Assembly: GCA_951406725.2 (NCBI GenBank)
Contig: OX597819.1
Location: 87,916,001-87,980,000, forward strand
From: Octopus vulgaris
Lineage: Eukaryota
Length of the DNA: 64,000 bases
Reading direction: 5' to 3'
The translations under genes and the position numbers were made by a program. The notes under the pieces are model-generated. The model had not been told where the DNA came from. It made no database searches and was given only the letters and a program-made list of their open reading frames with translations. Position 1 is the stretch's first letter, and each line of letters begins with the position of its first letter. Shown in pieces: positions 8,540 to 61,950 of the stretch.

Positions 8540-11500
8540 TTACATACTGGAGGAGAGAGTATTCTCTACCAAAGTAAGTAAAAAAAACCATCAGATACAG
8601 AATTAAAATTAGTGATGAGTATTTGCAGCAGTGTAATGGACCCACATTCTGGCAGATTAACGCCAGTCTATATTCTCTGGCTACTACTGCAAAGCAGTAC
8701 ATGAATGACATTCAAAAAGTGAAAAAGACCGAAAGAACAAAGAAAATACCATCATGGGTTTTTAAGACAGAGAAATAGATAACTGATTTACAGAAGATCA
8801 TCAGTCATGTGATGATGCTTATTGCATGCAAAACAAGCAAATCACTATACGTGCCACCAACAGAAAGTAAAGAAGGAGGTAGAAATAATGTTTGGAGACA
8901 GCAGAAAGAGGACACTCACTTGCAGACTGACTACCCTTAAGCAGGTGCTTGAGGGTAATCAGTGTTGTCGGTGAGAAACTCCAGCATCAGAAGAAAATAA
9001 CTGAGAGAAAAACAATGAACAAAAAAATTTAACTAGAGCAGGCAGTAGTATACAGAGACATTATACAGGTATAGGAGTGGCTGTGTGGTAAGTAGCTTGC
9101 TTACCAACCACATGGTTCCAGGTTCAGTCCCACTGCATGGCCTCAGGCCAACCAAAGCCTTGTGAGTGGATTTGGTAGACAGAAACTGAAAGAAGCCTGT
9201 CGTATATATGTATATATATGTATGTGTGTGTGTATATGTTTGCATGTCTGTGTTTGTCCCCTTAACATTGCTTGACAACCGATGCTGGTGTGTTTACGTC
9301 CCCGTAACTTAGTGGTTCGGCAAAAGAGACCCATAGAATAAGTACTAGGCTTACAAAGTATAAGTCCTGGGGTCGATTTGCTCGACTAAAGGTGGTGCTT
9401 CAGCATGGCCACATCAAATGACTAAATCAAGTAAAAGAGTAAAAGAGTAAAGAGAGACATGAGAAGAGGAGCAGTGAACATCACAGAAGCTCCTTCACAA
9501 GAAGACATAAAAACCTTCTGGAGGAAAATCTGGAGTGAAGAGTAGTTTAACTAAGATGCTTTGTAGCTGGAAGAAATTCGGAGAAGTAATTGTCTCTGCA
9601 TTACACTCAAGACATACAGCATTGATGGTGATACTCTTACAACTGTGATCCAGAAACTCCAGGATAGAATAACACTTGGAAGAGACTTGATGTTTGGATT
9701 TTAGTACAAGAAGCTGACCATATCTTATCAATTTGTACCAGCAAGCTTTCAATGAGAACAGTAGCATACCACATTGGTTAGCTCTGGCAGAGACAAAATT
9801 GATCCCAAAATGCAGAACCACTCACATGGCAAAAAGCTACAGGCCAATTGCATACCAGAACTTAACGTGTAAAATATATACAGCATGCTTAAACCTCTTC
9901 CTTCAGGACCATTGTGAAGCCAATAACATCAGCACAACAGAACAAGCACCTGAGAAGAAGAGAGTCTGGGGATGTGCTGAGCAATTGTTGATCAACAAAA
10001 CTGTTATGCCAGAGGTGCGAGAGAATAGGAGGAACCTAGTTTCAATGTGGCTAGATTACAAGAAAGCCTTCGACTCTGTTCCCCACTCAAGGATTCTAGA
10101 AGCCCTTCAACTTGTTAAAGTTCCAGTGAGAATAGTCAAAGCCATAGCTGACCTGACTTCACCATGGGCCAACATCTTGAAATAAAAAAAAGAGTGACTG
10201 TATTATCACTGATAGAACACAGTATCACAAAGTCATGTTCCAAGGAGACAGCCTCTCTGTGATGTTGTTTATACTTTCTGTAAACCCCTTGTCATTCATG
10301 TTAAGGAAGTCTGAAGGATATCTCACTGGTTCACAAGGAAACAGAAATACTAAAATTACATACTGTTTCTTTTAAACTTTATGCAAAGAATATGCCTGAA
10401 ATAAAAAAGAGCTTGGCCTAATTACAACATTCTCAAAGGATGAAGGGTTGGAGTTTGGTCAGGAAAAATGTTATTTGGTTGTGAAAAGTGGGGAAACTGT
10501 AAACCAAACTAGCTGCATCTCCATCAATGACTTGACTGTTTTCCCTATATCTGATGAGGAATGTTACAGGTATCTAGAGGTGGATGAAAACATATCTTAC
10601 AATGGCACTTGTAACAAAATATGTGTCACTAAAGAATATTATAACCGAATAAAGGAAATTTGGACCTAGGAACTCTCTGCATTCAATAAAACAGTGGCCC
10701 ACAATGTGTTTTCGGTGCCAGTACTCATACCAACATTTGAGCTGCTTGATTGGACACTTGATGAGATCCAAGCGATTGATGTGAAAACCCGAAAAATACC
10801 AACAAGAACATATAATTTCCACATAAACAGTGACGTAGACTGCCTCTACCCAAAATGAAAACAAGGTGGCAGAGGCTTAACATCAATCCAAAATGCTTTC
10901 AAATGTCATATCAAATCCCTTTGACAACATCTTTTAACCACCAAGCGTCGAAGTGCATCCCTTGATCAAGTTTGCATACATGAGGCTGATAACATAAGAC
11001 TTGGAAGGCAGCTCCTTGAACAACATACCTTGTCTGATAACCTTATATACCTGCCCAAAGAAGTCACACGACTCTACCATAACGTATCATCAGATGAAAG
11101 GATGAGCATATATAAGAAGACTATGTATGGATATGTTAGTAGACAGCTCCGAGATGATAGTAACATTGATCATCAAAGCAGTCTATCATAGACCAATAGC
11201 CGGATTACTACCTCTCACTTTGAAGGGTAAGCATTTGCAATCCAGGAACAGAAAATATCAATAAAATACCTGATGTACAAAAGGAATGGAGATGCAGGAA
11301 AACCAGTAAAATGTGGCAATTGATGCAGACTTTGTGGAGTTAACACTGAAGATATCACCAGTGAGACATGATGTTGTAGCTAGGACATTATATAATGAAA
11401 TCTGTTGGAAGAATAACCCTGTAGACAAAGAAATAAGAACCCACAATATAGTAGAAGCCATAGTCACTCAAAACAAAAAAGAGTACTGGTGGAATACCCC

Positions 11501-11950
11501 AGTGAAACCTTCAATAAAATGTAAGCACAATAGACCTGATATAATGATTTGGGATAGAGAAGAAAATCTGTGTACAGTTGTGGAAATTAACTGCCCATTA
11601 GATGTTAACATAAAGCTGAAGATCAGAGAAAAAGACAACACCTATGCTGAACTATTGAGAAATCTGCTGTTACTCTATCCAGATTACAAGTTCAGGTTTA
11701 TACCTGTAGTTATTGGGACTCTGGGGTATGTAACACACTGTCTAAATGCCAATCTTGAGAAATTAGGTTTCTCAAAACTAGAAAGAAGAAAGCTGATTCA
11801 AAGACTATAGATCCAATCCATCACTGGAACTATGAAAGTCTGTCACACTCTCCAGAAGTTTATCATTTAAAATGTATATGAGCATGTCTAGACAAGCAAC
11901 TATATGCATGAGAATACATACATAAAACAAAACATACAAATCTGCACACA
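8540..11950 (+). mobile_element. Degenerate non-LTR retrotransposon with RT and restriction-like endonuclease (R4/Dong-like)
   Basis: RT motifs YRPIA, WLDYKKAFDSVPH, FQGDSLS and YRYL; zinc-knuckle remnant CRLCG at ~11325; RHD and RPDIMIWD...VVEINCP endonuclease motifs (ORFs 9733-10185, 11313-11810). Many stops and frameshifts. Confidence 0.88.
9065..9452 (+). mobile_element. SINE family A inserted in an R4/Dong-like LINE
   Basis: Matches family A. Possible target-site duplication AGAGACAT on both sides. Confidence 0.88.
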
Positions 11951-14289: not shown

Positions 14290-15624
14290 CTGCCATTGCG
14301 CAGGATCAGCCAGCTCTGGAAACATTGGATCTAACTTCCACCAAGCTGTCCTGTTGCAAGTTTGCCTATCTTCCACTTCCGTCTGCAGAGGGCACAATCC
14401 TTTGTGACACAGCTACTGGTTCTCCTAGTCCATTTGTACCTGCGAACCACCAGCATTCTGTTTTCTATGCTTTGCATTCACTATCACATCCTGGCATCGC
14501 TACCTCGATGAAGCTTATTACGGCTCGGGTTCTTCTGGCCTAATATGCACCGTATGATCACCGCTTGGGCACGCTCTTGTGTGAAATGTCAGCGTTCTAA
14601 TGTCCACAGGTACATCCGTGCTCCTCTTGGACAGTTTTTCCCTCCGGAGACTCGCTTTCGCCATGTCCTCATTGATCTGGTTGGACCATAGCCTGTCAGT
14701 CGCGGTTTCTCTTACATACTGACATGTGTCGATTGTTTCTCTTGTTGGCCTGAAGCCATTCCAATAGTGGACATTTCCGCTGAGTGAGTTGCTCGAGCTT
14801 TCGTTTCTCACTGGATTGCTCGCTTTGGTATCCCAGCTAAAATAACCACTGATCGTGTACGCCAGTTCGAAGCTTCTTTATTTCGTGAATTGTTACGAAT
14901 CCGAGGCATTCATCACATTTGTACGACCAGCTACCATCCAGCTTCCAACGGGATGGCCGAACGTTTTCACGGGCAACTGAAGGCCGCTCTACGTACCACT
15001 CCTGACCCACAGTCTTGGACAGAATTCCTGCCAATTGTTCTTTTTGGTTGTCGCACTGCTGTTAAAGCAGACTAAGGTTTTTTCTCTGCTGAACTCCTGT
15101 ACGGTACTGTCCTGGCACTCACTGGTACAATGCTGGTGCCAGACAGTTCATCGCATCCTGATCCAAAGTCATATGTCACCAGACTTCGCTCGTATTTCTC
15201 AAGTCTTCAACTCATGCATCCGCGTGACCAGTCTATTCCCTCTCACGTCCCACCGGACATTGACAAATGGACTCATGTTTTTGTTCGGGATGATTCTGTC
15301 AAAGGACCTCTCGTTTCTCCTTATAAAGGACCATTTAGTGTGCTATCACGCACACCCAAAAGTCTCGACATCAATGGTCGGGCAGAGACTGTGTCGGTCG
15401 ACAAACTTAAAAGGGCACATTGTGAGGTGTCCTCATCCTTTGATGATACCCCAACCACGCCCACCTTTGATCTTTTACAACCACCTACACATGTACCTTT
15501 GACCACACCATCAACTACACCTCCACCTTCGTTGCCACAACCTAACACGAGCAAACCCTATGTCACTAGGACATTCCGCACTGTGCATTGGCCCCCAAAA
15601 CGCACCAGAACTATTTACATCTAA
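14290..15624 (+). mobile_element. Gypsy LTR-retrotransposon integrase fragment (pseudogenised)
   Basis: HHCC region HSLSHPG...WPNM...WARSCVKCQ; core IDLVGP, WPEAIP and TTSYHPASNGMAERFHGQLK; C-terminal PYKGPF..VSVDKLK. Contains stops and frameshifts. Confidence 0.9.
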
Positions 15625-16329: not shown

Positions 16330-16912
16330 CTTCCATTATACATAAATGATGAGGGAAGATGGATGGAACAAACGATAGCCCCATTCGGATTGATGAAGCA
16401 AGATTTGCTGGTCGACGGAAATACAATCGAGAAAGAATTCTGAATGCCGACAATGCTCCTTTCTTCGAAGACAGTAATGCAGAACAACGAAACAACAGAA
16501 ACCCTGGTAGTAAAATTGGTGGGTCGTGGGTTTTTGTTTTCAAACAAGGCTCAGACTGTCGATACGGCGTGACGGGAACAGTTTGATCCCAATTATTGAG
16601 AGAGAATGTGGAAAAGGTTCAGTAGTTCATTCAGATGAGTGGCCCGCTTATAATAATTTAAATGCCAAAGGTTATCACCCTCTGACAGTGAACCATCAAC
16701 GACATTATGTGGATCCAGTGACCGGAGCACACGCTCAGGCCATTGAGCGATCATGGTTAGATGCTAAAACTATGATTCTGAGAAAAATGAGAGGCGTTGG
16801 TACTGAACTTTTCCAGTCACATCTTGATCATTTCTACTGGAAGACGACGAGGAAAAATTCAGATGATTTATTTCTATTGTTCCTTAATGACATAATAAGT
16901 GTTTACCGTTAA
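16330..16912 (+). mobile_element. Merlin / IS1595 (ISXO2-like) DDE transposase fragment
   Basis: IDEARFAGRRKYNR..GGSWVF, then a frameshift, then VHSDEWPAYNNL..GYHPLTVNHQRHYVDPVTGAHAQAIERSW. Confidence 0.85.
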
Positions 16913-17699: not shown

Positions 17700-17742
<43 letters not shown>

Positions 17743-18021
17743 ATATAATTAATTAATAAGGGTGAGAGAATTAGATACTAATTTAATAGTATATTTATTC
17801 AACACCAAGTGGCCTAGTGCTCCGAGAAACCTGGATTATTATAATATTTTATAACATATTATAATATTTTTACAAAATAAATATAAGAGAGTGGTCACTA
17901 TATTGCTCACTCTAGCACCAGTTAATCCAAAAGGTTTCAACCACGAAAATACATGTTTCCCATGAAAGTCAGTACGATTGTTAGCTCACACGGACAGGGC
18001 AAATAAAAAATAACAAAAATA

Positions 18022-18118
18022 CAGATTATTTTGGGACAATTGTTTCGCTATTAATGAATTAAATGTAATTTTACTTACAAAAAAAATCCATTTGTAGCTC
18101 GTCAGCCAAAACTATCTG
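18022..18118 (-). ncRNA. Type I hammerhead ribozyme, copy 1
   Basis: Minus strand reads CAGAUAGUUUUGG-CUGACGA-GCUA...UAGC-GAAA-CAAUU-GUC^CCAAAAUAAUCUG. The catalytic core is complete, stems I and II pair, and stem III is the palindrome ACAAUUGU. Predicted cleavage between 18035 and 18034. Confidence 0.9.
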
Positions 18119-18557
18119 GATGAAATCCACTCAATCACACGCCAGATTTTACCATAACGATAAATACGCGTGTGGTTCAATTGATTACATCCGACGTTAT
18201 AATTCAAATGCCCCAACCAACAGCGCGCCAAACTTTCACGGAAAACAAATACAGCATTTAGAAATAAATGCAGCATAATTATAATTAATTAATAAGGGTG
18301 AGAGAATTAGATACTAATTTAATAGTATATTTATTCAACACCAAGTGGCCTAGTGCTCCGAGAAACCTGGATTATTATAATATTTTATAACATATTATAA
18401 TATTTTTACAAAATAAATATAAGAGAGTGGTCACTATATTGCTCACTCTAGCACCAGTTAATCCAAAAGGTTTCAACCACGAAAATACATGTTTCCCATG
18501 AAAGTCAGTACGATTGTTAGCTCACACGGACAGGGCAAATAAAAAATAACAAAAATA

Positions 18558-18654
18558 CAGATTATTTTGGGACAATTGTTTCGCTATTAATGAATTAAAT
18601 GTAATTTTACTTACAAAAAAAATCCATTTGTAGCTCGTCAGCCAAAACTATCTG
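18558..18654 (-). ncRNA. Type I hammerhead ribozyme, copy 2
   Basis: Same sequence as copy 1, offset by 536 bp. Predicted cleavage at 18571/18570. Confidence 0.9.
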
Positions 18655-19093
18655 GATGAAATCCACTCAATCACACGCCAGATTTTACCATAACGATAAA
18701 TACGCGTGTGGTTCAATTGATTACATCCGACGTTATAATTCAAATGCCCCAACCAACAGCGCGCCAAACTTTCACGGAAAACAAATACAGCATTTAGAAA
18801 TAAATGCAGCATAATTATAATTAATTAATAAGGGTGAGAGAATTAGATACTAATTTAATAGTATATTTATTCAACACCAAGTGGCCTAGTGCTCCGAGAA
18901 ACCTGGATTATTATAATATTTTATAACATATTATAATATTTTTACAAAATAAATATAAGAGAGTGGTCACTATATTGCTCACTCTAGCACCAGTTAATCC
19001 AAAAGGTTTCAACCACGAAAATACATGTTTCCCATGAAAGTCAGTACGATTGTTAGCTCACACGGACAGGGCAAATAAAAAATAACAAAAATA

Positions 19094-19190
19094 CAGATTA
19101 TTTTGGGACAATTGTTTCGCTATTAATGAATTAAATGTAATTTTACTTACAAAAAAAACCCATTTGTAGCTCGTCAGCCAAAACTATCTG
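19094..19190 (-). ncRNA. Type I hammerhead ribozyme, copy 3
   Basis: As copy 1, offset by 1072 bp. One change at 19159 turns an A-U pair into G-U in the extended stem II. Predicted cleavage at 19107/19106. Confidence 0.9.
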
Positions 19191-19451
19191 GATGAAATCC
19201 ACTCAATCACACGCCAGATTTTACCATAACGATAAATACGCGTGTGGTTCAATTGATTACATCCGACGTTATAATTCAAATGCCCCAACCAATAGCGCGC
19301 CAAACTTTCACGGAAAACAAATACAGCATTTAGAAATAAATGCAGCATAATTATAATTAATTAATAAGGGTGAGAGAATTAGATACTAATTTAATAGTAT
19401 ATTTATTCAACACCAAGTGGCCTAGTGCTCCGAGAAACCTGGATTATTATA

Positions 19452-19494
<43 letters not shown>

Positions 19495-27742: not shown

Positions 27743-29030
27743 ATCATCATCATCATCATCATCATCATTTAGCGTCCGCTTTCCATGCTAGCATGGGTTG
27801 GACGGGTCAACTGGGGTCTGTGAAGCTGGAAGGCTTCGTCAGGCCCAGTCAAATCTGGCAGTGTTTCTACGGCTGGATGCCCTTCCTAACGCCAACCACT
27901 CCGCGAGTGTAGTGGGTGTTTTTTACGTGCCACCTGCACAGGTGCCAGACAGAGCTGGCGAACGGCCACGAACGGATGGTGCTTTTACGTGTCACCGGCA
28001 CGGGGCCAGGCGATGCTGGCAACGGACACGAACGGATGGTGCTTTTACATGCCACCGACACGGGGCCAGACAGAGCTGGCAAACGGCCATGAACGGACGG
28101 TGCTTTTACGTGTCACCGGCACGGGGGCCAGCCGAGGCTGACAACGAACACGAACGGATGGTGCTTTTACGTGCCCAGACAGAGCTGGCAAACGGCCACG
28201 AACGGACGGTGCTTTTACGTGTCACCGGCACGGGGGCCAGCCGAGGCTGGCAACGGACACAAACGGATGGTGCTTTTACGTGCCACCGACACGGAGGCCA
28301 GGCAGAGCTGGCAAACGGCCACGAGTGAATGGTGCTTTTACGTATCACCGGCACGGGTGCCAGACGAGGCTGACAGCGGACACGAACGGATGGGTCACTT
28401 AACCCCTGCTTTCTGATATATGATTTGATTTTGATTGTTCTCACTGGTCTTGCCGGGTCTTCTCACACACAGCATACTTCCATAGGTCTCGGTCTCTGGT
28501 CATTTCCTTGGTGAGACCTAGAGTTCGAAGGTCGTGCTTCATCACCTCGACCCAGGTTTTCCTGGGTCTACCTCTTCCACAGGTCCCCTCAACTGCCAGG
28601 GTGTGGCACTTTTTCACACACCTATCTTCATCCATTCTCACCACATGACCATACCAGCGCAGTCGTCTCTCTTACACACATCTGATGCCTCTTAGGTCCA
28701 ACTTTTCTCTCAAGGTACTTACACTCTGTCGACTATGAACACTGACATTACACATCCAACGGAGCATACTAGCTTCATTTCTCGCGAGCTTACGCATGTC
28801 CTCAGTAGTCACGGCCCATGTTTCACTGCCATGTAGCATGGCTGTTCGTACACATGCATCATACAGTCTGCCTTTTACTCTGAGCGAGAGGCCTTTAGTC
28901 ACCAACAGAGGTAAGAGCTCCCTAAACTTTGCCCAGGCTATTCTTACTCTAGCCGTTACACTTTCAGCACACCCACCCCCACTACTGACTTGGTCACCAA
29001 GATAACGGAAGCTATCAACTACTTCTAGAG
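27743..29030 (-). mobile_element. 5'-truncated RTE-clade LINE (ORF C-terminus, minisatellite-bearing 3' UTR, (GAT)n tail)
   Basis: Reads FRYLGDQ..ARVRIAWAKF..RLYDACVRTAMLHGSETW..MLRWMC..RRLRWYGHVVRM..RGRPRKTW. The tail appears as (CAT)n on the plus strand at 27743-27768. Confidence 0.9.
27920..28395. repeat. ~60-bp GC-rich minisatellite (~8 copies) in the RTE 3' UTR
   Basis: GTGCTTTTACGTGTCACCGGCACGGGG...GCTGGCAA(A)CGG(C/A)CACGAACGGATG recurs at ~60-bp spacing, e.g. 27979 and 28039. Confidence 0.85.
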
Positions 29031-32000
29031 AAATAAACATAGAATGTATGATCCCTTAATCATGCTGTGTGTGTACATACAACTCAACTGATTTAACCTG
29101 AAAACTTTTAAAACAGAATTTTTAAACTTCCCTTTAGCTACTTATCAGCATTCGGACAGTTTAACATACTCTGCATTTGAATTGTTTATCCATTGGTTTT
29201 GCATGAATTTAACTTCCCAAAATCAAACTATGGTGATAAGGTCTACAAAAAATCCAAAATATTTATTGTATTTTAATGGTGCCTAGCAACTGAAATGGTT
29301 TTTATAGTCACCTCTCAATCTTTTACATTTACTTTGCAAATTGCATCGCAACAAAACAACAAGTGTATTATCTTATCATAATCATTGTGGGCAGAGAACA
29401 TCTGACTACATGTACAGGCTATCTAGCTTGTAATTTAATGACTTTATCTGTTCTTAACCACTGAGACAGAGATGGAAAAACCAAAAGCTAATTAACTTGT
29501 ATTTTCAAGTCTGTACATATTACATGCCATACTCTTAATCCAATACTGTGTAAGGTTTCTTTTGTTTAGCTGTCGATATTATCCTTGTGTAATCAAACTA
29601 TTCAGATATCTTGGCTACAGAAAACTTCTTCATACACTTATTTGATACAGTCCAGTTTTACCATATCTGTTCAATTAAAAGTTAAACTAGAATGTCTTAT
29701 CTAAATAATCTTTTGTTTGTCATAATAACAAGGTTTTCTCTTCAATAGAAATTTGTACTTCAGAATAAAACAGCATAGGCACTTGTTATATTTAACTCTA
29801 GATTAGTTTCTTCCTTTCAACATTGAGCTTTACGTTTTTTTTAACAATATTTTTTAAAGAATGTGAAAGTAATTAATTTATCAGCCATATTACCTGCATG
29901 CTTGGTAAAATGAATATCTTTAATGTTACTTTTATAAAACCAATAAGATCAATTTTTTTAGCCTTTAGCATGCTACAGCCATCATATTATTAGTTATCAC
30001 TCTAAGATGCTGATGAGTCTTCATGTAGCCAATATTTGTTGCAATTAAATCTAAGTATTCATTGCAACATTAGATTACATTTGAAAACAATATGGCATCA
30101 ATGCCTAAGCCATTCATTGGCTAAAAAAAAGAACATGTTCAAACAATACAACTGAAAAACATTAGTCCCTTGTATCCCAGGTTCAGATCCTATCAGTTCC
30201 AGCATGGCAAAGGTCTTCAAACAGACCTATGTCTTTATTCAGCAACAATGTCTGGGCTACTTTCCAAGTAATATTGTGAACCAGAGCTCTTAATGACTTG
30301 GCTCTTCCAGTTGTCAGTCCCTATAAAATATTGGCCATCTGAAGGGGTATATTTGTAGAGTAATAATAGAAACAATATTACAGTTTTCTATAGGATTGAG
30401 CTGGTTAAGTGTGCTTGGGATATTTAACAAGGAGAACACTTCTAATATAAACGGGTAAGAAATTCTTCATAGGACAATTCTCATAGGACAAAATCTCATA
30501 AAAATGCACTCTTTTTATTCTAACACAGTTCACTTTAAAAATTTCTTGAAAATTTAGAAGTTGATGGAAATTTAGAAGTTGATGAAAATTTAGAAGTTGA
30601 TGGAAATTTAAAATAGTATACCATAATGAAAAAAACTCAACTTTCTGGATATGTGATTGTTGAAAGTACAATGATAATTGGCATCACTGATTTAGTGATT
30701 GGGAAAAAGAGTCAATGTCTGAATCAGCTAAAGAGGTTTACATTCATATACTTTCATATTTCATTGAACATGCCCTGACCAAATATTTAGAATCACAGCT
30801 GATAAGAGAAAATAATTCATTGAACCTAATGGGAAATGAACACATTACTCGGTAGTTAATAGTGCCAAGATTGAATCATTTCACAATAGATTAAATGGAA
30901 AGATAATAAAGTATATCAACATTAATGCCCAAGTCAATATGATAGTAAAGGGAAAACCCTAAAAGTACAAGACATTAACTAAATCCCTCTAAGGCACAAT
31001 TAAATATTTCTAGTTTGCTTCCAATTTATGCTCAATCAATATAATCATACTAGGTATGCATTCAAAATGTTTGAACATGGTTACACTATATTTCACATTT
31101 TCTGCATAATATACTTAACATAACATATTGTTCCTAAATAGAAGAGATAACTCTCTTCAATTGAAGAAATACTGTTCAAATATTCAGGTCCCCCTACAGC
31201 AATAGTCAATATTCATGTCTCTCTATGGCATAGAAATTTATGTGAACTTTATTAAATGATTCTTGCCAATGTAGCTCACAGCTAGTTTCCTCTGACTGGT
31301 TTTTATTTCCTGCATTAAAATGCTTATCATTATTTTGATATCCAAAGTGCTACTACATACCCTTACATTTCACTATTGGCTCTAATTCATTGACATTTTT
31401 TTCAACACCAATTCATTCTTCATATACATAGTATTACTTTTGGACTGTATATCTCACTTGGTCTCTTTGGTAGAGTTGTTACAGTCATCAGGATGAGGAG
31501 TAAATGAACAGTGCTTTATAGTAAATAAGCAAATTCAACAAACATACTAAAATTAATCTCCACAACAGCTGTTTCAATCCTCAGTTAAAACTGCTTTACT
31601 TTCTTAGCAATGTACTTAAGGAAAAAAATAGGCCCTAAACATACAGGCATATATTAAGAAGTCTGCATGTAACCATGTAGTTTTGAATCTCATCTTACTG
31701 TATGGCACCTGTTGTAAATGTCTTCTACTGTAAGTCCAGGTTGGCTAATATATTGGAAGTATAATTTGGAAAACAGAATCTGTGTGTGTATGTGTTGACA
31801 TCTTTCCATATCAAAAGTATTTCATTCTGGTATTTATTTTATCAAACAGCTAAATACTGGAGGTAAAGCTGATTGACTAAAACCATTGAGAGTAGTTCCT
31901 TGACCCAGTCACAATCCAGAAGAAAGAAAGCATCAAAATTTCACCAATTTCTATAAAATTTTAAAGTTCCAAACAGTGGGAGCCAGTCCCAGTGTATCAT

Positions 32001-41273: not shown

Positions 41274-43243
41274 CTATACAACATATTCTATTAAATAATC
41301 GGGGTAAGCTTGGGCACTATCAAATATAACAAAAATCTTTGGGTCCCATATGTTGTCTACACAAGAGTCATAGCATTTTCCAAATGGTTCGGCACATGGA
41401 TATAAAGGTGGGGCTTTCTTCAGGCTGCTGTTACCACCTGTGTACTTGCCCACGAGAACTTTGGCAATGAACATTTTCCGCGTGCAGTTTGTAGGTATTG
41501 AGGTCCGTGTCGTATGGGGTTCTCCATTTTGGCAGTAGAGTTGGAGTGTGTTTGCTGTCTGTTGAGCCTGGATTGCTTGTGGGGTAGGGGGCTGAGGCTG
41601 GGTCTGTGGGACCAGCTGTTGTTGTTGGGATGGTGCTGGTGGTGCTGGTGGTACTTTCACTATTAGTTTGGATTGTGAATGGCCAACAGTGCTGACTTTA
41701 GGACCAGAAGTTCCTGGTGGAATGGGCACAACAAAACCTTTCCGCAGGAATATTTGTTGGGGTTGCTGCTGTGGTTGCACTGGGGCTTGGTGATGGTGGT
41801 GGTGATGGTGGTGATGGTGATAGTGATGTAAATGATGTGGTGTTTGTTGTGCAGCTTGTATATGCTGGGGTGGGGCTTGGGGTTGGTTCTGTGGAGGTAC
41901 ACCAGCTTGCTGGGCCATTACTTGTTGCTGAGGCTGCTGTTGCTGAGATTGTTGTTGAGATGGCACTCTTCCAAAAACAAGTTTCGGCTGGGTGTGAGAC
42001 ACCATGTTAACTTTAGCTGCCGAAGCTCCTGTTTGAAAAGGGGACAAAAATTCTCCAAGTGTTATCAGCTGAGGTGCTGAAGTTGATGTGACCTGTTGCA
42101 GTGTTGGCCCAACTTGCTGTGGTTGCTGATGATGTTGCGGTTGGGCTAACTGTGGAACTTGTGCAGCAGTCTGTAATTGCGGTGATGGTTGTAGTTGTTG
42201 CACAGCCTGCAATTGCAATAATGGCTGTTGAGCTTGTGAGAGTTGCTGTGACTGCAGCGCCTGCGATGGTATCGCTGGTTGCTGGAGTCGTTGTGTTGCT
42301 TGTGCCTGCAGTCGTTGTGTGGGTTGTGTTTGAAGTCGTTGTGTGATGCGCTGCAGAAGGTATTTTTGCTGCTGCTGCTGCTGTTGTTGTTGTTGCTGTT
42401 GTTGCATTTGCTGTTGTGGTTGTGACAATCCTCCAAAGATTAATTTAGAGTGTGAGTGTGAAGCCAAATGGCTTTTGGGATTAACAGCAGTTCCTGCCTG
42501 GAAGGGTACAACCAGAGGGATATGTTGAGGTGTGCTAGTCACTGGCACTGTCTGCAGTTGTTGGTGTACTAGCTGTTTAGGGGCTGTTGACAGCACAAGC
42601 GGAGACTGCATAACTGTATTGTTAGCAGTTACAGTAGGGCCAACATTACCACTGGAAGGAAAGGATACAGTCAAATTTTGTAATGAATATGAAGATGATG
42701 ATGAGGGTGTTGAAGATGAAGAAGATGATGGGACATTAGGAGCAATGCCAACTGATGAAGTGTCTTGCATATTAGGCATATTCTGAACAGTTTGGTTCTT
42801 GTCTGCATCTGTCATTGGCATCATGACAATGTTTATGCGATTAGACGGTACTCTGTTTACAGCAGTGTTTGGATTGTTAGTAGCTTTGATAGTCGGACAA
42901 CATATATTTGATCCAGCTCCAGGAGGTGCAGCTCCTAATAAAGCTTGACTAACAAATGGGTTGTTACTAGAACTGGCCATTATGCTTCCTTGAGCAGTAT
43001 AGGTGGTCACTGAACTTGTATAGCCTGTTAATTGCAGTGGTGCAGCTGGGTTCATACTTGGAATATTAATACTTGGACTCAACTTGAGGAAAGCATTTTT
43101 ATTGTAAGGATTGCAGAAGACTTTAGTGGTCATTGCAATGTTGTTAGAACTGACACGACCAGCTGGAATTGGACGCTGCCGCTTAATACGAATGTCATCA
43201 GTAAATTGATGAGAGTATGAAGCCTCGCCCGCAAAGTAGGAGC
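41274..43243 (-). CDS. PARP-family mono-ART gene, terminal coding exon (C-terminal part of the catalytic domain, interrupted by a 574-aa low-complexity segment)
   Basis: Acceptor tttcattgtAG at 43245-43244, phase 1. Reads (G)SYFAGEASYSHQFT, then an open 574-codon insert, then KMFIAKVLVGKYTGGNSSLKKAPP...YDSCVDNIWDPKIFVIFDSAQAYPDYLIEYVV*. These motifs match the TIPARP/PARP11/PARP12 catalytic C-terminus. Includes ORF 41274..43133. Confidence 0.93.
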
Positions 43244-43433
43244 CTACAATGAAAAAGAAAAAAAATGAAAAGAGGATACAATTAAAAGTGAAAAATAGAA
43301 ATGTAGTAAATCTAAGTGAATTTTACATTATCTCAATACACTTTATTGCTTTTTGCAATATTTTCCCTAAGATTATAGTGGCACAGAAGTATAAGCTGTC
43401 TATGTATGTGCAAATCATATTGTTTTGTCGTTT

Positions 43434-60189: not shown

Positions 60190-61950
60190 TAGCCATCACT
60201 CATTGTCTTAACCAAATCCAGTGGCTAGCCTTTTCCACTGTAGTTTGGATATTGCCCATGGTGGTATTTGCTTTACGATGAGATAGGTCTAATGATAATA
60301 ACAGTTGCCTCACACTGTGTCCAACAAATCCTCTACATTCGACTTCGATTGGAAAATGCTCCACTTTCCAGCCTGTCTTCACATACCTCAAGGAGGTTTA
60401 TATAATGGTCAATCTTTCAATCCTGAGCAGCATCCATGTTATCTTCATGAGGAGCAGTTAACTCAACTAGATTTACCACTTTCTTTCTTTTACACCACAT
60501 TATAATATCCATTTTTTTCGCAACTGGGATGGGAAAGAATCCTTGGCACCCTGGTCAATTTGCAGCCACCTCCCAATAGCCGTTCCACTTTTCATTGCTC
60601 AAAGGAAGTTTCTTCTTGAAATGGATCTGCCGTCCTGGGTGCATGAAAGTAATGAAATCTCTGCTTGGTACTTTCAATGGTTTTTTTTTTTTCACTGTTG
60701 ATGAGAGCAATTTGGTTCTTTATAGCATTGAAGATAATCTTAAGGACCAGATTGTGTTTCCATGTATATCTGTTCAATGCCAGTGAACAGTTGGAAAGAA
60801 TATGTTTCAGTGTTCTGACTTTGCCGCATTTGTATATATCATTTTCTGAGATGTTCCATCTTACTAGATTTGTAGGCAATGACAAGACATCATGAGATGA
60901 ATGAATCAGAAAACTTAGCCATGATATTGTCCACCTCCAGATCTCATTCAAACTTATTTTTCTCTCAACATGTTCTTCCTATTTCATCATCTGTCCTTGT
61001 TAAGCATATTGGATCAAATGAAGCACTCCTCTCTCTGTTCCCCTTGTTTTGACACTGTTGCTAACAACAGATCTGCGTTCACTCTGCATCATACTTGCAA
61101 ACTGTCTGAACTGATCTGCATCAAATCCAAGTCCCTTCCAATGAATTTGCATTGCACCCACCATATCTTGGTGTGTAAGTGAAGACAGAATGACATCAGT
61201 CTTTGCTTTCCACTCCCTGGCTGTTTTTACATCTAGTGGATTATGCCTGATTTCTATATCCTTTGATTCTCTTAGTATCATCACCGTCCATACCTTGCCT
61301 AGTTTATAAATTTTGACTACTGATGCCAGTGGTAACTGCAATGAGCCTGTTTTATGATAGAGAGCTGAACTGTTCAATATACGAGGCAGGCCTAACTGCC
61401 TTCTAATGAACAAATTAAACTTTTGTTCAATAACTTGAACTCGTGATAATGCCACCTCATTTATTAAAAGTGGACACGAAAGAGCAGATACAAGCCAAAC
61501 TGTAAGCATCGTATTTTATATTTATCTGGTAGCTTTGAGTTATCGATTGCTGTTAATCCTTCCTTGGCTTGTTTTACAATTTGCATCTTATGACTCTTAT
61601 CTGACAATGTTCAAGTGTATACACGTCCCATGCTCTTGACGGGTTCTTCCTTGATTGTTGGAATGTTTTCTTCAGCTATTTTAAACTTAACTTCTTTTTG
61701 AACTCCCTTAATAAATCTTAGACTATGTAACTTTTTGCTCTCAATCGCATCCTTGACCACTTCACAAACTCATCTAGCCTCAAGAGGGCACTCTGCAGGA
61801 TTTGCTTCTCTGTCAATAGAAGTGTCACATCACCCATAAAGGCCTGTCCTCTACTTACAATCTTCAAGCCCCTCTCAGTTGCAAAGGTCCTACAGTACAG
61901 CTTGCATCCAAAGTTGTTTGCACTTCGTTCACTGTTCAAAAGAATAGCTG
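60190..61950 (-). mobile_element. Degenerate RLE-type non-LTR retrotransposon (Hero/R2-superfamily-like)
   Basis: RT remnant AFMGDVTLL; zinc knuckle and RHN-like motif CGKVRTLKHILSNC..RYTWKHN; C-terminal GWKVEHFPIEVECRGF. Multiple stops. Confidence 0.8.

Follow-up and report, generated by a model that had tools for sequence, protein, structure and literature searches.

Animal non-LTR retrozymes, the closest described counterparts of the element reported here, are tandem, non-coding units of low GC content (<50%), each with one type I hammerhead and occurring as dimers to multimers; their monomers are strongly self-paired, and Penelope-like elements co-occur in their genomes (PMC7229834; bioRxiv 10.64898/2026.07.22.740005). 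For published animal retrozymes RNA, cleavage and circles have been shown, and the joining of monomers by a host ligase has been shown in vitro for other retrozymes. The hypothesis that Penelope machinery moves them is likewise in print, where it draws on co-occurrence and on homology to Penelope pLTRs (PMC7229834; bioRxiv 10.64898/2026.07.22.740005). Endonuclease-bearing Penelope-like elements, in turn, use (TA)n targets, leave no readable target duplication and carry a hammerhead upstream of their 3′ ends, and those of the Neptune/Nematis linker type show head-on inverted and tandem insertions along with two internal start sites giving the so-called tail (PMC8557442, PMC3846280, PMC11167929). 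Their reverse transcription begins at the two internal sites that define this tail, on both cut strands (PMC11167929); the presence of the tail at one end only has been noted qualitatively (PMC8557442, PMC3846280), and the formation of both the tail and the inverted repeats is described as unresolved in PMC8557442. A third point of comparison is offered by the newt and axolotl satellite hammerhead repeats, whose short stem III with its palindromic loop is suited to cleavage as a double hammerhead (PMC7229834; dimer model PMC4209133). Among cephalopods, 235 Rfam hammerhead loci have been recorded in the giant squid (PMC6962438), and a term search of the available text of PMC7229834 returns neither “octopus” nor “cephalopod”. 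Our literature search, outside of which lay most subscription papers and Repbase/Dfam, found no paper on a cephalopod retrozyme, and none that counts a strict two-end rule or analyzes the insertion ends of a retrozyme.

The element described here lies in a 64,000-nucleotide stretch of the Octopus vulgaris genome (henceforth the window) and combines features of all three systems. Like the animal retrozymes, it is a tandem, low-GC, non-coding array of strongly self-paired units with one type I hammerhead each, in a genome with Penelope-like elements; unlike them, it has a 536-bp unit and a stem II extension of ~46 nt, is missed by Rfam, and is known from its sequence alone. With the Penelope-like elements it shares the (TA)n targets, the hammerhead upstream of the 3′ ends, the two internal start sites and the inverted and tandem insertions, and no target duplication is readable; it differs from them in lacking a reverse transcriptase or endonuclease and in a tail of ~130 nt rather than 30–40. 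From the newt and axolotl satellites, with which it shares the short, palindromic stem III, it is set apart by the longer unit, the long stem II extension and the dispersed short arrays with defined ends. The kind of element is already known, and the new part is the strict coupling of its two insertion ends detailed below.

The array repeats with a period of 536: 1201 of 1264 positions match at this lag, as against 343–414 at neighboring lags, and the only substitutions between units are at 18623/19159 and 18757/19293. Its GC content is 32%, its longest stop-free frame is 69 aa, and it is flanked by (CT)n(TA)3 on the left and (TA)16 on the right (Table 1). These figures bear out the claims of an earlier sequence-only reading of the window, which had seen ~3.2 near-identical head-to-tail units devoid of a protein ORF and inserted in an AT microsatellite. 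The absence of any reverse transcriptase or GIY-YIG endonuclease ORF further sets the array apart from an autonomous Penelope element. Tandem Repeats Finder does not report the array because its period limit of 500 is below the unit period. The variable right-hand end, at unit position 109, meets the (TA)16 at a TA-rich stretch, as it does in the independent insertion L063. Access to an empty target site was sought through a host repeat; the left-flanking DNA is single-copy. An assembly artifact is unlikely: arrays with private shared variants occur on many contigs, and the unit junction is present in four public studies.

Table 1. Coordinates of the retrozyme insertion, its flanks and its functional or predicted parts, numbered within the window
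Feature	Positions	Strand	Remark
Single-orientation insertion, 3.21 tandem 536-bp units	17744..19461	-	Sense RNA from minus strand
Start site A: constant boundary to (TA)n, inferred cDNA start	17744..17760	+	800 exact junctions (0 in control)
Start site B (unit position ~130)	18410..18425	+	411 exact junctions (0 in control)
Left part of target, (CT)n(TA)n microsatellite	17704..17743	.	DNA further left single-copy
Right part of target, (TA)16	19458..19489	.	Adjoins variable end of array
Type I hammerhead, copy 1	18022..18118	-	Predicted cut 18035/18034
Type I hammerhead, copy 2	18558..18654	-	Predicted cut 18571/18570
Type I hammerhead, copy 3	19094..19190	-	Predicted cut 19107/19106
Predicted cut-to-cut 536-nt monomer	18035..18570	-	Fold prediction
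Segment immediately 3′ of the cut, 11 A-to-G places	18437..18568	-	Runs guessed RNA; rare or absent in genomic copies

Each full unit carries one type I hammerhead on the minus strand, with stem I (including one A-A mismatch), the CUGACGA core, the 4-bp stem II, the GAAA and the GUC cleavage triplet all where the sequence-only reading had placed them, and the three cut positions that it predicted check out on the sequence. Two further elements, absent from that description, are the ~46-nt extension of stem II and a stem III of 2 bp inside an 8-nt palindrome. The Rfam covariance models, which had been proposed as a check, give no hammerhead match in the array at the gathering score or at E<=10, likely, as we infer, because of the long stem II extension; three U4 matches (E 6.2) are attributable to chance. 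Genome-wide, a pattern of the core yields 2267 matches (control 0), the tolerated core position being C, A or G among the 100 listed. Standard Rfam annotation passes over >2000 hammerhead cores in the O. vulgaris genome. Among 24 aligned copies from three families, six of the seven stem I pairs change on both sides, and 93.9% of cells are paired, compared with 81.4% in shuffles (0/500 of which reach the covariation score) and 33–46% in slid controls, although the kinship of the copies means that these cell counts overstate the independent events. This covariation shows selection on the ribozyme fold, and the minus-strand RNA is predicted to self-cleave. Because stem III is a short palindrome, retained in 22 of the 24 copies, cleavage as a double hammerhead is probable: in a dimer transcript stem I is predicted to pair across units with a probability of 0.88, and the double form is favored at -182.4 versus -173.7 kcal/mol, though in this model the palindromic stem III itself is not predicted in register. 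The monomer has a fold z of -6.6 as a linear and -7.3 as a circular molecule (40 shuffles; -4.7 and -5.8 for the plus strand), with a predicted 17-bp helix between 18490-18506 and 18231-18247; the fold is predicted to bring both ends together and to re-form stems I and II across the junction. Other, unrelated hammerhead-like motifs with a long stem II were also encountered at the loci L087, L105/L224 and L151, the last with a different palindromic stem III, and the genome probably has further families of ribozyme repeats.

In the 2.8-Gb assembly the unit has 1062 candidate places, 40 of which were scored and gave 207 matches; the 150 listed are 96–100% identical, and the family is young. We parsed 99 loci, comprising the window, 38 taken for their top scores (a choice that favors long arrays), 20 that are extensions or clusters of ribozymes, and 40 first-listed junction matches, one end of which is fixed by choice. 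Read opposite to the RNA strand, the insertions start either at site A (unit position 0–3) or at site B (~130), ~130 nt apart; of 160 such ends, 156 border directly on (TA)n. The sequence-only reading had placed the array ends away from the cleavage site; the starts are not random but two fixed, Penelope-type sites that supply the two alternative 3′ ends of a tail and match the two internal start sites reported in PMC11167929. In the window array, which starts at A, copies of A recur internally at 18280, 18816 and 19352, and B, the second fixed start of the family, is internal, with further copies at 17874 and 18946. The other arm ends are spread evenly over the unit: one of 162 lies at the cut site, and the 20-nt bin around it holds 7 against a mean of 6. 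The arms reach up to 18 units, on many contigs, and columns 284–296 around the cut site are free of gaps in 311–316 laps. We therefore reject linear monomers joined by template jumps, as there is neither a pile-up of arm ends nor any indel at the cut site. Laps free of scars call for an unbroken template, which could be a circle or a multimer left uncleaved. By the same token the non-integer copy number, earlier held to fit reverse transcription around a circle, is compatible with one, but alone is no proof, as an uncleaved multimer gives the same. In a few arms (L031, L039, L093, L220) there are internal jumps between unit positions that resemble template switching.

The parsed copies also speak to the earlier concern that the unit might adjoin Penelope ORFs: Penelope protein fragments were found in only 3 of the 99 parsed loci, always outside the arrays, and no ORF is attached to the unit; nor do 38 flanks beyond the variable ends share a common continuation, save for one pair that we take to be a host repeat. 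The family is dispersed, tandem and non-coding, its hammerhead covaries and its unit is free of an attached ORF, all of which supports the reading of the array as a candidate retrozyme. The accompanying claim that its unit is longer than those of most animal retrozymes holds against the 170–400 nt of PMC7229834, where the mussel examples measure 350–390 bp, and fails against the 51–972 bp of bioRxiv 10.64898/2026.07.22.740005. We hold it to be very probable that the retrozyme is moved by Penelope machinery, a case that earlier papers on animal retrozymes made from co-occurrence and pLTR homology and that is here read from the insertion ends, no pLTR homolog having been found among 44 GIY-YIG loci. 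The fuller statement, that in this array a young, non-coding retrozyme family has inserted once and is likely mobilized by Penelope from circular RNA, is our best explanation and is held to be probable, if less certain than the Penelope mobilization itself.

When the parsed insertions are grouped by orientation, 61 of 100 groups are inverted and 39 single-orientation, i.e., the mixture of inverted and tandem insertions in microsatellites typical of Penelope. All 61 inverted insertions have one arm starting from A and one from B (binomial p ~2e-19). Those of single orientation begin at A (21 groups), at B (17) or at neither (one, a family 3 fragment). Eleven further loci gave five A-plus-B insertions, two ambiguous cases and four in single orientation. 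The Penelope literature places the tail “often” at one end only; here this is so in every young insertion that could be resolved. The arms of inverted insertions are similar in length (medians 810 and 726 nt) and overlap on the template, each can exceed one unit, pairs as uneven as 0.2 plus 18 units occur, and they mostly meet via an overlap of 0–4 nt, with a few long overlaps of 17 and 31 nt. Both arms share their diagnostic sites in 45 of 48 insertions and differ at one site in the remaining 3; random pairs agree in 288 of 2245 cases (12.8%). Together, the A-plus-B rule and the common haplotype point to coupled priming on one template, and they yield a testable rule, namely that the start site differs between the two DNA ends whereas the haplotype of the template does not. 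That both arms were copied from one and the same molecule has, in our estimate, slightly under an even chance.

As for the form of the template, 24 haplotypes occur among 70 fully covered insertions, each near-uniform over its laps (17 mixed cells in 1894), which favors repeated passage through a monomer and re-expansion, i.e., a circle. Private variants are fixed in all laps of both arms in several insertions (e.g., 8/8 in L220 and 6/6 in L215). Among 120 private substitutions covered at least twice, 24 are present in every lap, 78 are confined to a single lap and 18 recur in part of the laps; one circle offers no simple explanation of the last class, which counts against it. These partial patterns (L068, L216, L047, L057) and an alternation in L219 leave room for multimers; we nonetheless consider it probable that the circle was the main template. 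In L219 (G000:C3:179746500-179756000) a ten-unit arm has variants that partly alternate with a 1070-bp period, reflecting either a dimeric template or an assembly effect.

Two older and more diverged sister retrozyme families are present in the genome (sampled at L255-L257, L259-L284 and L298-L307), with 2314 and 3779 candidate places. They have the same circularly arranged unit, which in all three families runs round into itself, and the same A and B ends. Seventeen of 24 family 2 loci, read by eye, are inverted A-plus-B insertions and seven are ambiguous; its triplet is GUC, yet its arms are mostly short. Among 14 sampled copies of family 3, the cleavage triplet is GUU in 11 and GUA in 3, and in all 14 stem II has a U-U at its base, a feature shared with HHR_Amex2 among the newt and axolotl repeats. 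The old family 3 thus spread with what was probably a weak ribozyme. One family 3 locus, L278, is of the A/A type, with diverged arms.

A search for GIY-YIG endonucleases uncovered 6136 candidates in the genome, among them many copies of an intact 781-aa reverse transcriptase-endonuclease frame with a CxxxxCxxC linker, a feature assigned to the Neptune and Nematis clades (PMC8557442); the label Neptune-type is used here on the basis of this linker motif rather than of a tree. These elements end in (TA)n at two points ~35 nt apart, and their inverted pairs are of the short-plus-long kind in 6 of 6 cases among the first 100 of 674 matches (p ~0.001). The retrozyme helper is probably such a Neptune-type enzyme, but as a candidate only, since no sequence common to the retrozyme unit and an autonomous element was found among 44 GIY-YIG loci of the 6136. 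The 781-aa protein has 505 relatives, the best at 58% identity, and those that are named come only from bivalve-symbiont assemblies. We also note that the young Neptune-type family with many intact frames (L191-L197, L203, L204) appears by eye to carry in its pLTR a hammerhead with the U3-A8 core variant, a variant described in PMC4209133, that other related families lie within L161-L202, and that L259:2266-2865 (minus strand) appears to encode a Penelope/Poseidon-like endonuclease fragment; more than one Penelope clade may be present.

Four public runs, from four studies and under two organism labels, cover the whole unit; they are kept as contigs and are guessed to be RNA, none being so recorded. 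They contain the end-to-start joint, which tandem DNA also gives. Of the 31 listed differences in these runs, 13 are at <=1% in ~300–370 genomic laps, and 11 of these 13 read T>C along the plus strand and A>G in the ribozyme sense; all 11 lie in the stretch just 3′ of the cut, 8 of them in two or three runs. ADAR disfavors a G on the 5′ side of its target; none of the 11 places has one, in keeping with this preference. Hence, if the runs are RNA as guessed, A-to-I editing of the ribozyme-strand RNA is likely. This signal bears on the suggestion that the heterogeneity of retrozyme RNA may come from editing (PMC7229834). Two of the A>G alleles, checked genome-wide, gave 13 matches each; these fall in 4 and 7 insertions, respectively, and for either allele a single subfamily background is involved. 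One such background could contribute to the signal at 18517, and 3 of the 11 places match the family 2 letters. A general bias from editing fixed into the genome is not supported, as the derived changes relative to family 2 amount to 7 A>G, 8 G>A and 8 U>C; nor is independent fixation of edited alleles, given the single background of each tested allele.

To account for these observations we tentatively propose, at a confidence that stays below even, that an asymmetric Penelope dimer on one circular ribozyme RNA primes both (TA)n strands at two fixed sites, so that a pair of reverse transcriptases travels around a single circle and the resulting cDNAs converge head-on, the same RNA being A-to-I edited beside the cut site. 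If true, this one mechanism would cover the Penelope tail, inverted pLTRs and retrozyme arrays alike. The broader cycle, which we regard as probable, starts with tandem minus-strand transcripts; these would be cut at GUC, probably as double hammerheads, and a host ligase would join the monomers into a 536-nt circle. The Penelope-like enzyme, probably Neptune-type, would cut both (TA)n strands, with one DNA end priming at A and the other at B on the same template, and each polymerase would run a variable distance, up to 18 laps. The two cDNAs would then join via their 0–4 nt overlap into an inverted insertion or, where one arm fails, the partner would join the TA tract to give a single orientation, as in the window array. 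The hundreds of young insertions record each priming event, and candidate helper genes are intact in the same genome. Against this cycle counts the observation that only 1 of 9 Xenopus retrozyme dimers was cleaved in vitro (bioRxiv 10.64898/2026.07.22.740005), as do the missing Rfam match, the stem III predicted out of register, the mostly GUU triplets of family 3 and its A/A locus L278.

In an alternative account Penelope-type machinery copies an uncleaved linear multimer of an existing array, with hammerhead and circle unneeded for insertion. In the one reconstituted Penelope system the hammerhead is dispensable, insertion in vitro being unimpaired by ribozyme mutations; unprocessed RNA is the main template, and start sites are alike on both strands (PMC11167929), the last unlike our A-plus-B rule. 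Scar-free passage of the cut site fits the linear multimer equally well, the partial and alternating variants suggest mixed-unit templates, and family 3 spread with mostly GUU triplets. Linear copying alone would, however, keep mosaics in place of 24 near-uniform haplotypes, and the stem I covariation speaks for selection on the ribozyme fold; we regard the account as unlikely, though it is the strongest competitor.

Far less probable is a derivation of the arrays from the 5′-truncated pLTR ends of some as yet undiscovered autonomous Penelope-like element, lengthened by tandem duplication at the DNA level. It could appeal to the relationship of Xenopus retrozymes to pLTRs (bioRxiv 10.64898/2026.07.22.740005) and to the small part of the 6136 GIY-YIG candidates covered, but it is hard to reconcile with a unit that closes on itself in all three families, with 38 flanks that share no continuation apart from one pair, with Penelope fragments in only 3 of 99 loci and outside the arrays, and with inverted insertions whose arms are often both multi-unit with free inner ends. 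We give the least credence to an origin of the inverted insertions in a first cDNA that folds back or primes itself, or in twin priming of the L1 type. Self-priming has been proposed for Penelope inversions (PMC3846280), and the few junctions with overlaps of 17 and 31 nt could be so explained; fold-back, however, predicts A/A or B/B pairs (0 of 61 seen) and a second arm that at most equals the first in length, contrary to pairs such as 0.2 plus 18 units. In L1-type twin priming one arm is expected to stop where the other starts, whereas the inner ends spread over all positions.

Beyond the retrozyme, the window has several other features of note. At 41274-43322 (minus strand), a 682-aa glutamine-rich frame ends in a weak match to the PARP catalytic domain (E 1.8e-5, below the cut-off) and is probably an exon of a host PARP-family gene. 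About 0.8 kb to the left of the array, at 16514-16912 (plus strand), lies an ISXO2-like transposase fragment (PF12762, E 1.8e-11), and a decayed reverse transcriptase fragment (RVT_1, E 2.4e-9) occupies 9718-10185 (plus strand). Retroelement-like fragments that return no Pfam match occur at 11310-11810, 15076-15624, 28672-29055 and 60592-60978. Finally, a GC-rich tandem array of 7.9 copies of a ~61-bp unit is seen at 27921-28393.
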